A DNA stretch of 64,000 nt from the NCBI GenBank assembly GCA_041891055.1, contig CP169074.1, positions 608,001 through 672,000 on the forward strand, in the 5' to 3' direction. Under the pieces are notes generated by a model, which had not been told where the DNA came from, ran no database searches, and saw only the letters and a program-made list of their open reading frames with translations. Positions 6,873 to 56,089 of this stretch are shown here, one piece after another (position 1 is the stretch's first letter; every line of letters starts with the position of its first letter). The translations under genes and the position numbers were made by a program. The DNA is from Halorutilales archaeon Cl-col2-1 (GTDB taxonomy: Archaea; Halobacteriota; Halobacteria; Halobacteriales; Afararchaeaceae).

Positions 6873-6883
6873 AAGCTGCATCT

Positions 6884-6945
6884 GTTTAGCGAAGCCTCGG
6901 GCGGGATTTGAACGCCGGTCAGTTCCTTCCCTAGTTCAGACCGCT
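6884..6945 (-). repeat. duplicated tRNA-Thr 3' end (30 bp) + 20-nt core + degenerate inverted T-arm copy
   Basis: GTTTAGCGAAGCCTCGGGCGGGATTTGAAC at 6884-6913 is identical to 6964-6993. Confidence 0.9.
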
Positions 6946-6972
6946 TGAGGCACGCTAAACTCGGTTTAGCGA

Positions 6973-29500: not shown

Positions 29501-30166
29501 ATGACGAGACTCATCGGACATAGAGGCTGTGGGCTCGCACCCGAGAACACGGTAGAGGCGGTCGAGAAGGCAGCCGATTACGTCGATGTGGTCGAGGTCG
29601 ATGTCCGAGCGACAAAGGACGGGGTTCCGGTTCTCCTCCACGACGAGACAGTCGACAGGACGACTTCGAAGACGGGAAGACTCGACTCATACAGGTACGA
29701 GGAGATAGAGGACTTCGTCCCACGTCTCGACGAGGCTCTCGAAGCCGCCGAGGAGTACGGCTTAGACCTCAACATAGAGGTGAAGGAGAGACGTGTCACC
29801 GACGCAGTACTCGACCTCCTCGAAGGCTACCCGGGAGACGTCCTCGTCTCGTCCTTCGACTACGCGGCTCTGAGGGAGTTAGCCGAGAAGTCGAACCACG
29901 GTCTCGCGCCTCTCTTCGAGGAGGGGGACGGATTCGGTGTTGCCGAGGAGGTCGACGCGTCGGCGGTACATCCCCACCACGACCTCGTCGACGCGGAATA
30001 CGTAGACGAAGCCATCCAAAGAGGTCTCGAAGTCAACGCGTGGACTGTCAACGATGTCGGAAGGGCTCTCGAACTCGTCAGTATGGGAGCCGGAGTAATC
30101 ACGGACGTTCCTCACGAGATAGACCCGGAGATGAGAGACCGAGCCGAGGATAACGAAAGCTACTAA
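29501..30166 (+). CDS. glycerophosphodiester phosphodiesterase
   Basis: IGHRG, PENT, VEVDV, HD, NIEVK, WTVN. Confidence 0.92.
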   Translation: MTRLIGHRGCGLAPENTVEAVEKAADYVDVVEVDVRATKDGVPVLLHDETVDRTTSKTGRLDSYRYEEIEDFVPRLDEALEAAEEYGLDLNIEVKERRVTDAVLDLLEGYPGDVLVSSFDYAALRELAEKSNHGLAPLFEEGDGFGVAEEVDASAVHPHHDLVDAEYVDEAIQRGLEVNAWTVNDVGRALELVSMGAGVITDVPHEIDPEMRDRAEDNESY

Positions 30167-30208
30167 AACGCGCGCGAGGAAGATCAAGAGGGTAATAGAG
30201 GTAGAAGA

Positions 30209-55726: not shown

Positions 55727-55828
55727 CAGTATCTTATCTGTCTGTTCTGTCTAAGAAAGCTCGTCTTATTAATTCACGGGAATAGAACAAATACGAACGG
55801 GCTCACTCCTCCTTACAGTCGTCGTTGT

Positions 55829-55884
55829 ACGGGCCGGGAGGGATTCGAACTTTGGTCATTGCATTCCCGAGTTCGAATCCTTCC
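55829..55884 (-). repeat. duplicated tRNA-Lys 3' end (22 bp) + 20-nt core + inverted T-arm copy
   Basis: ACGGGCCGGGAGGGATTCGAAC at 55829-55850 is identical to 55895-55916; GTTCGAATCCTTCC at 55871-55884 is the inverted copy. Confidence 0.9.
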
Positions 55885-55895
55885 TGAGAGTTAAA

Positions 55896-55970
55896 CGGGC
55901 CGGGAGGGATTCGAACCCTCGGTCATCTGGTTAAGAGCCAGACGCTTTAACCGGACTAAGCTACCGGCCC
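55896..55970 (-). tRNA. tRNA-Lys(CTT)
   Basis: GGGCCGG/CCGGCCC acceptor stem, TCTGG-CTCTTAA-CCAGA anticodon arm, GGTTCGAATCC. Confidence 0.97.
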
Positions 55971-56089
55971 ACTGCGTTTCTAACTTTGACGGGGTATTCT
56001 TTATAGGTTGTGATTCGAACTCGGGGATGCAGTCCCCGACGACAGCCCCATGAAAAGCTTCTTACGTCGGTATTTCAAATCTGTTATGC

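Follow-up and report, generated by a model that had tools for sequence, protein, structure and literature searches.

REP and REPIN sequences are short, non-coding palindromic repeats that form hairpins and occur in many copies outside genes (PMC3337134); they are bacterial elements that turn over quickly and are non-autonomous. These features are shared by a family of small cassettes located behind tRNA genes in one haloarchaeal order, which is described here starting from the cassette of a tRNA-Lys gene. The att duplications produced by T-loop-targeting integrases are reported (Williams 2002) to be direct repeats of the tRNA 3' end beside a tRNA that stays intact, and the cassettes show the same two features. 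For haloarchaeal integrases of the SNJ2 type, att cores of 14 bp at the tRNA 3' end have been reported (PMC5861418). The attC sites of integrons and the folded attP of CTX-phi have a layout to which that of the cassettes is analogous: an imperfect palindrome with a conserved inverse core and core at the base of the stem, strand-specific non-Watson-Crick features and a cassette-like tandem arrangement.

The inverted triplications formed by ODIRA share with some cassettes a direct-inverted-direct layout, with junctions at short inverted repeats that are able to form hairpins (PMC11790251). The t-elements, which carry tRNA-like processing signals, are known from plant mitochondria and from the region upstream of 5S rRNA in Haloferax volcanii (PMC4326828); like the cassettes, they are partial tRNA look-alikes outside tRNA genes, and some cassettes have a hairpin base that resembles an acceptor stem. 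The MITE, PATE and SMR elements of Haloquadratum are small transposase-free repeats, some of which are associated with palindromes and some of which move in an unexplained manner, and in their description none is said to be tied to a tRNA tail or to duplicate it (PMC3119063). Another of the closest items found in the literature concerns annotation problems with tRNA fragments (PMC9897764). No description of a palindromic module built on a tRNA tail was found in the open full-text literature that was searched. In 2012, Hoelzle et al. reportedly described 47 tRNA-like elements of Haloferax volcanii, and these elements may overlap with the cassette family.

The cassette lies in a window of 64,000 nt (the whole stretch of DNA that was analysed) behind a tRNA-Lys(CTT) gene on the minus strand, which was placed at 55895..55971 by ARAGORN and at 55896-55970 by the Rfam tRNA family RF00005 (75.6 bits), and the duplicate is templated by the last 22 nt of this gene. 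Read away from the tRNA on the same minus strand, it begins with a 10-nt spacer, TTAACTCTCA (55885..55894), which contains no run of at least four T. The spacer is followed by an antisense arm A', GGAAGGATTCGAAC (55871..55884), an inverted copy of the T-loop and the 3' strand of the T-stem in 13 of 14 positions that is also present in the sister genome (G001). Next comes a 20-nt core, TCGGGAATGCAATGACCAAA (55851..55870), which fits the structure of the family and is covered by a match to the covariance model R1 (55840-55881). The last element is a direct copy A, GTTCGAATCCCTCCCGGCCCGT (55829..55850), an exact 22-nt duplicate of the tRNA that begins at G53 of the T-arm and ends one base beyond the discriminator. 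Within the core, a mini-hairpin, GGGAA-T-GCA-A-TGACC (55868-55854, minus strand), has junction bases on both sides and comprises GG/CC pairs, a tandem G.A/A.G, an A-T and a T-A pair, and a GCA triloop. The tail copy is located 66 nt, start to start, from the original tRNA 3' end, and the chance of a given 22-mer recurring within 400 nt (approximately 400/4^22) is negligible. The succession of antisense arm, core and tail copy had been proposed in a sequence-only reading of the locus and was borne out, as was its statement that no integrase or cargo lies between the repeats: the copy begins 44 nt from the tRNA, and there is therefore no gene between them.

The cassette occupies part of the 168 nt that separate the tRNA from a co-directional prenyltransferase gene, and a divergent riboflavin-kinase/DHBP-synthase pair occupies the other flank of tRNA-Lys. 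The proteins encoded in the window are strongly acidic overall (D+E 17.3%, K 2.9%), which, together with the occurrence of the same element in members of the Halobacteriales, marks the host as a haloarchaeon. Since no T-run precedes the cassette, there is no obvious terminator between it and the tRNA, and it may well be transcribed. Folded as RNA, arm, core and copy together are predicted to reach -23.1 kcal/mol (z -3.15), a value that none of 200 shuffled sequences equalled, and the predicted DNA fold of the hairpin reaches -12.4 kcal/mol (z -3.0). The predicted ensemble of tRNA-Lys plus cassette holds both pairings, and in its centroid the 5' acceptor strand is paired with the downstream copy.

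The genome of the window (G000; 2.06 Mb, four contigs) contains 43 tRNA genes according to ARAGORN, and 13 of these are followed within 400 nt by an exact copy (13-22 nt) of their own tail. Such a copy is lacking behind the tRNA-Cys gene within the window. At all 13 loci the tail copy begins at the T-loop, and its right-hand limit varies, lying in some cases within the acceptor strand and in others as far out as +9 (Thr), +19 (Arg(GCG)) or approximately +60 (Ile of the sister genome). A search of this genome with R1 gave 25 matches (E <= 0.02). Trailers of tRNA genes called by ARAGORN hold 24 of them, and the 25th (C1:1589443) is located approximately 70 nt from a T-loop-like fragment without an ARAGORN call. 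Although the Lys cassette had been taken for the second copy of a pair, it is one of about 15 loci in the genome and a member of a family that extends across the order. The core motif was found at many tRNA loci, contrary to the possibility that it might be absent from all others, and it does not occur on the three small contigs of the genome. A run of at least four T separates the tRNA from the cassette at 7 of the 13 loci, and the cassettes of Lys, Thr, Ser, Leu(CAA), Tyr and Gln(CTG) are preceded by none.

The likeness to the tRNA-Thr locus that the sequence-only reading had pointed out is reflected in the R1 matches at both loci, with similar E-values (6903-6944, E 1.3e-11, for Thr; E 2.4e-11 for Lys). 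Behind tRNA-Thr(GGT), the sister cassette (6881..6972, minus strand) consists of an inverted copy of the tail and its flank, the core TAGGGAAGGAACTGACCGGC and a direct copy, the latter being approximately 30-33 nt long (a 33-nt repeat at 97%) and located at a distance of 80 nt. Its inverted arm reads GTTTAGCG-TGCCTCAAGCGG-TCTGAAC, and a perfect copy would read GTTTAGCGAAGCCTCGGGCGGGATTTGAAC. At some loci (Thr, Tyr and Ser), A' copies the entire tail, and even the flank, in inverted form with internal deletions, and these units, like some in other genomes, have the direct-inverted-direct layout. Other loci carry more than one unit: tRNA-Val(GAC) is followed by 12 tandem units of 81 nt, and at Leu(TAG), Leu(CAA) and one tRNA-Met the first unit has a decayed second one behind it.

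To describe the common structure, 36 distinct units, drawn from the window's genome and its sister, from further members of the order and from metagenomes, were aligned (alignment A2), and R1 was built from these 36 copies. The order of parts is spacer, inverted copy A', core and direct copy A, in which A comprises the tRNA from G53 to the 3' end plus a variable stretch of flank, and the core is a mini-hairpin of the form GG-GA-x-y-loop-y'-x'-GA-CC with a loop of 3-4 nt or longer. In the A2 structure, 87.3% of the cells are paired, compared with 81.6 +/- 0.7 after shuffling (0 of 500 shuffles as high) and with 15-48% in controls with slid partners. The inner pairs of the core covary: pair 18:26 is AU in 22 copies, GU in 7 and GC in 6, and pair 19:25 is CG in 27, GC in 6 and UA in 1. 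In an independent count over 48 distinct cores, pairing was found in 88 of the 96 inner cells, compared with 71.2 +/- 2.6 after shuffling (0 of 2000 shuffles as high), and among 32 matches to the core pattern outside cassettes the inner pair is formed in 11. All 36 copies have the tandem G.A/A.G without variation, and it is specific to the sense strand, as the opposite strand would read T.C. The hairpin is under structural constraint. The 20-nt core recognized by the sequence-only reading is present and is shared with the Thr locus; however, it is a structured mini-hairpin and not a linear motif. Mismatches in the stems showed no clear wobble bias (G.T 49 versus A.C 32 in the inner stem, 30 versus 41 in the long arms), these counts being biased by the search patterns. 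Loops of the GNA type are found in 25 of the 48 cores, and the closing pair is C-G in 33. C(GNA)G triloops, as known from the literature on d(GCGAAGC), are unusually stable in DNA and favour DNA over RNA hairpins.

The arms follow their tRNA to different degrees. Pair 7:38 is UA in 19 copies, CG in 13 and something else in 4, that is, the antisense arm follows the A or G at T-loop position 57, and the rare T-loops TTCAAGT, TTCAATT and TTCAACT of one genome (G022) are mirrored in both arms. Beyond the T-loop, the sequences suggest that the arms are weakly tRNA-specific: when local alignments were made without the T-loop, the cognate tRNA ranked 1-4 at 8 of 13 loci, and an ungapped anchored test was clear at 5 of 11 scorable loci. 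The antisense arm had earlier been called Lys-specific, a claim that is regarded as weak: its specificity is modest, and its T-loop part tracks the local T-loop variant throughout the family.

The covariance-model search that had been proposed together with the sequence-only reading was extended to a sample of the phylum. With stricter filters, R1 matched 22 of 24 other genomes of the same order (1-25 matches each) and none of 126 genomes from the phylum's other families. Two pattern searches over 401 genomes of the order were positive in 13 genomes with a strict pattern and in 71 with a looser one, approximately half of the inspected matches to the latter being true cassettes; the reversed-pattern control gave no match in either search. 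Only 28 of 49 cassette-like matches carry a copy of the cognate tail. When the twelve top R1 matches from twelve genomes were inspected, 10 had a tRNA gene on the same strand 30-130 nt upstream. In G022, all 26 R1 matches are located 34-330 nt behind a same-strand tRNA gene, and 25 different tRNA genes are involved. In these other genomes of the order, the module is very regular and is composed of the tRNA, a T-rich flank, a first hairpin and then the T-loop palindrome with the core at its tip. The stem of the first hairpin consists of the flank and its inverted copy, and its tip is GAACGAAGTGA or a relative; the same 11-mer is often found inside the core at the tip of the T-loop palindrome. 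The order of parts in these units may be written as flank, loop, inverted flank, inverted tail, core and tail. A search with an A-T variant of the core among 185,579 species representatives gave 29 stretches, of which approximately 17 were true cassettes by reading, all from Halobacteriales or relatives, and the rest were intron-bearing tRNAs or chance matches in coding DNA. Similarly, a metagenome scan gave 23 stretches, approximately nine of them true cassettes by reading (contig GC 0.64-0.70), and the remainder were intron-bearing tRNAs or coding matches.

Comparison between the window's genome and its sister genome, which are approximately 88% identical in the Lys region, showed both conservation and turnover of units. 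Orthologous units are kept in the sister genome behind Ile, Ser(TGA), Arg(GCG), Thr(GGT) and Val(GAC). At its tRNA-Lys(CTT), the spacer and the antisense arm are kept and the next 70 nt are missing (alignment A1). The missing stretch (55798..55867, minus strand) takes in the greater part of the core, the whole copy and the 31 nt that follow it, and it also lacks a counterpart in a relative of approximately 90% identity, represented by a related contig in the metagenome runs X2 and X3, in which the same skip appears as a joint 55797>55868. Other metagenome joints at the Lys locus are short contigs from foreign tRNA-Lys genes. Further differences between the two genomes were found at other tRNA genes: tRNA-Lys(TTT) is empty in the window's genome and filled in the sister genome (a 46-nt insert plus a 26-nt repeat), tRNA-Arg(TCG) has an extra unit of 79 nt only in the sister genome, and the 12 units behind tRNA-Val compare with one in the sister genome.

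Within the sister genome, an exact 38-nt stretch (antisense T-loop, core and T-loop) is common to the Lys(TTT) and Ser(TGA) units and includes a base specific to that genome, and the Lys(TTT) unit retains the fragment GTGAGG of a Ser-type arm; this shows the copying of a unit between tRNA loci within the lineage. These comparisons show that units have been gained, lost, amplified in tandem and copied from locus to locus. The flanks carried along in the direct copies also change together with their originals. Both flank copies of Arg(GCG) share two substitutions within each genome, and those of Ile are near-identical over approximately 60 nt in the sister genome and diverged in the window's genome. 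The patterns show that direct copies have been re-homogenised against the tRNA gene. Since flank copies evolve in concert, the exactness of the Lys copy requires no selection on the copy itself.

In the window's genome, no cassette was found to contain or adjoin an integrase or recombinase gene; the genome has 11 tyrosine-recombinase matches and a single Y1 transposase, none of them linked to a cassette. Three pattern scans of 2.9 million viral contigs for a viral parent gave 0, 5 and 0 stretches, none of which was true, the five being rejected as chance matches in coding DNA. The idea that the copies serve as decoys for attB gained no support, as no viral or integrase link was found. An origin of the cassette by reverse-transcriptase snap-back became less probable, as a search with RVT_1 gave no match in the genome (99.5% complete). 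In Rfam, the cassette matches no family, and only the tRNA reaches threshold. The K-turn, C/D box, hammerhead, BHB intron, CRISPR repeat, SD-like motif and ORB box were dropped by eye, their defining spacing or bulges being absent and no Rfam match being found. Classical att repeats do exist in the same genome and differ in appearance from the cassettes: those of tRNA-Glu(CTC) measure 41 nt and are separated by 57 kb, the tRNA having three integrase matches next to it, and those of tRNA-Gln(TTG) measure 43-44 nt and lie 4.9 kb apart.

Set against the described systems, the cassettes show several peculiarities. Unlike REP and REPIN sequences, they occur only behind tRNA genes, as judged by 24 of the 25 strong matches, their arms copy the neighbouring tRNA instead of one fixed sequence, and the tRNA tail is duplicated; moreover, no link to a RAYT was found, the single Y1 transposase gene being located elsewhere in the genome. 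Compared with integrase att sites, the repeats of the cassette are only 44 nt apart without integrase or cargo, an inverted arm and a conserved hairpin are added, and no matching attP was found on a virus or plasmid (among the viral contigs and the three small contigs). The 14-bp cores given for SNJ2-type integrases in PMC5861418 differ from the cassette repeats, which range from 13 to more than 60 nt. The sequence consensus of attC is unrelated, and the arms of the cassettes are derived from tRNA, which also distinguishes them from MITEs, together with a duplication of 13 to more than 60 nt where MITEs have a target duplication of fixed length. Relative to ODIRA (PMC11790251), the scale is 20-80 bp and not kilobases, and no replication origin is involved as far as is visible. 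In addition, the hairpin at the cassette junction is conserved across the order and is not a chance repeat, and the core is foreign to each tRNA and common to different loci and genomes. The fold of the cassette, unlike that of t-elements, is not tRNA-like, because its T-loop sequence is paired and not looped.

On present evidence, the family is tentatively regarded as a REP-like palindromic DNA repeat that is anchored on the T-loop and resides in the tRNA trailers of one haloarchaeal order, a reading whose probability falls somewhat short of even; the Lys cassette is best read as a small, partly decayed member. The gain and loss, amplification and copying of units, the constraint on the hairpin and the homogenisation of copies lead to this reading, together with a lean to a hairpin at the DNA level, which comes from the GNA triloops and from the T-runs at 7 of 13 loci. 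The unit would then behave as a selfish or structural repeat of the REP type, with a hairpin that forms on the sense strand, either in non-template DNA or in read-through RNA. Its spread might proceed by copying between homologous stretches, for which the T-loop sequence, nearly universal and present on both arms, would offer the match; this sequence would also allow repeated conversion from the tRNA gene. Fold-back or template switching at the stable hairpin tip could produce the direct-inverted-direct layout, and the tail copy would be kept identical to the gene; the template-switch step is suggested by this layout and by analogy with ODIRA (PMC11790251). If the cassette also served the host, for example by shielding the tRNA unit from the co-directional prenyltransferase gene that starts 168 nt downstream, this would be a secondary role. 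On the other hand, the conservation of the core across families of the order and the near-universal presence of the element there (22 of 24 genomes, with up to 26 matches behind 25 different tRNA genes in one genome) are explained no less well by a selected function in the host, or by a trans-acting protein dedicated to the element, than by selfish spread, and the absence of a linked mobilising enzyme among the recombinase and transposase matches of the genome argues against a REP-like repeat. It is rather doubtful, but conceivable, that the T-loop palindromes represent a new kind of element, either a tRNA-homing DNA hairpin or an order-specific cis-element of tRNA units. In its self-propagating version, this joint reading would use the universal T-loop as landing homology and the stable G.A/GNA mini-hairpin as a fold-back primer, without an enzyme of its own; in the other version, the cis-element would be read by some haloarchaeal protein.

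An unlikely but serious rival is that the cassette is a functional, RNA-level part of the tRNA transcription unit, so that a read-through pre-tRNA would carry a stable trailer hairpin. Such an RNA could possibly act in termination or insulation, serve as a processing signal or as a protective cap, persist as a stable trailer RNA, or form the two-state switch of the sequence-only reading, in which the antisense arm would pair with either the real T-arm or the copy. The conservation of sequence and structure across the order, the co-orientation with the tRNA at a distance of 34-330 nt, the sense-strand-specific tandem G.A, folding that is better than in shuffled sequences and the predicted pairing of the 5' acceptor strand with the copy all speak for it. 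So do the six loci at which no T-run precedes the cassette, the position of the Lys cassette before a co-directional prenyltransferase gene and a stable tRNA-His 3' trailer of approximately 60 nt in H. volcanii, as reported in PMC3495736. However, transcripts of the other seven loci would meet a T-run before the cassette, the set of cassette-bearing tRNAs differs between sister species, the arms show no clear wobble bias, and most tips are C(GNA)G triloops, which favour DNA hairpins. In addition, the 12-copy tandem array, the decayed copies and the non-cognate tails are hard to reconcile with a needed RNA function. Less probable again is site-specific recombination at the T-loop, in which the substrate of a tyrosine recombinase would be a small single-stranded circle or hairpin in its folded form, in the manner of attC or the CTX-phi attP. 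Insertion of a circle at G53/T54 would give the order tRNA, tail, spacer, inverted arm, hairpin and tail. The left limit of the duplicate, fixed at the T-loop at 13 of 13 loci, speaks for such a mechanism, and the T-loop is reportedly a known integrase sublocation (Williams, 2002). The duplex sequence of the T-loop site is recreated in the stem of the hairpin, one-unit insertions and deletions between the sister genomes are clean, tandem units occur, and the genome holds both tyrosine-recombinase matches and classical att repeats of 41-44 nt. Nevertheless, no cassette contains or adjoins a recombinase gene, double-stranded circles could not be formed by units as small as 66-81 bp, movement into a new tRNA would begin with the breakage of that tRNA, the viral contigs gave no true match, and the right limit varies from 0 to approximately 60 nt past the tRNA. 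A classical variant, in which the cassette is an att scar whose element body was later deleted, cannot account for the recurrence of one 40-nt remnant at dozens of loci throughout the order.

If this reading of the family holds, up to half of the tRNA genes in a well-studied archaeal group carry a conserved structured module in their trailers that was found neither in Rfam nor in the open literature searched. The tail copies can be mistaken in annotation for att sites or tRNA fragments, and genomic-island finders that are keyed on repeats of tRNA tails could be misled. The family may also serve as a natural system for the study of how short palindromes originate, spread and remain identical to a neighbouring gene in polyploid archaea, and if the hairpin is transcribed, it bears on the ends and processing of haloarchaeal tRNA transcripts. 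The covariance model R1 makes the family searchable, and deletion and mapping experiments would be straightforward in model haloarchaea with genetics.

Two minor observations show further arrangements of the units. In one genome (G258), a 2.5-kb insert with a nucleotidyltransferase and no integrase is located between two cassette copies. In the window, a second, partial unit in inverted orientation lies upstream of the tRNA-Lys promoter (56012..56040, plus strand), where GATTCGAACTCGGGGATGCA is complementary to 55860-55879 in 19 of 20 positions; 19 nt of this unit are missing in the sister genome, and in the window it runs on into a small hairpin, GGGGA-TGCAG-TCCCC.

Upstream of the promoter of the tRNA-Lys(CTT) gene in the window, an inverted partial cassette unit lies on the plus strand (window 56012-56040), and the gene is therefore flanked on both sides by a 19/20 inverted repeat, the two arms of which are 132 nt apart. 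In the sister genome, 19 nt of this partial unit are absent. Outside the window, 12 identical 81-nt cassette units were found in tandem behind tRNA-Val(GAC) (G000:C1:1463973-1464945), whereas the same tRNA gene in the sister genome is followed by a single unit. All of the units in the window's own genome carry TTCAAAT, in contrast to the TTCGAAT of tRNA-Val itself.

Repeats of tRNA 3' parts were also observed elsewhere in this genome. A 41-nt copy of the 3' part of tRNA-Glu(CTC) is located 57 kb away from the gene (G000:C1:1277907-1335129), and three tyrosine-recombinase matches adjoin this tRNA (C1:1330164-1334263), which together look like a classical integrated element. Two tRNA-Gln(TTG) 3' parts, identical over 43-44 nt, lie 4.9 kb apart (G000:C1:1799511-1804579), with no integrase match between them; the second is followed by a decayed cassette, in which the arm and core are present and the T-loop copy is absent. 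In the sister genome, a large element appears to have been integrated in tRNA-Lys(TTT) (L006, G001:C3, about 30100-30200), where the cassette comes immediately after a 41-nt partial tRNA that resembles an attR, and the same flank as in G000 lies beyond it.

Inserts within and between cassettes were also identified. Small extra palindromes occur within the tail copy, at the T-stem/acceptor boundary, at loci L014/L023 (G258:C7), L115, and L120, the last of which also shows several recurrences of 14-nt copies of the tRNA end. At L032:3600-5900 (G258:C7), two near-identical cassette copies are separated by about 2.5 kb, a stretch that contains an ORF for an MNT-type nucleotidyltransferase and lacks an integrase.

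About 70 nt upstream of one match of the covariance model (G000:C1:1589443-1589584, minus strand) there is a T-loop-like fragment for which ARAGORN called no tRNA; this fragment may belong to an intron-bearing tRNA gene.

With regard to tRNA trailers, that of tRNA-His(GTG) in G022 (L144, G022:C5) is 135 nt long and contains two hairpins; in Haloferax volcanii, the tRNA-His trailer has been reported to be stable and about 60 nt long (PMC3495736). The 11-mer GAACGAAGTGA and its close relatives form a recurrent hairpin tip in trailers of the window's genome and other genomes (such as at L047, L066, L076, and L141), and three of the four occurrences of GAACGAAGTGA in G000 are behind tRNA genes.
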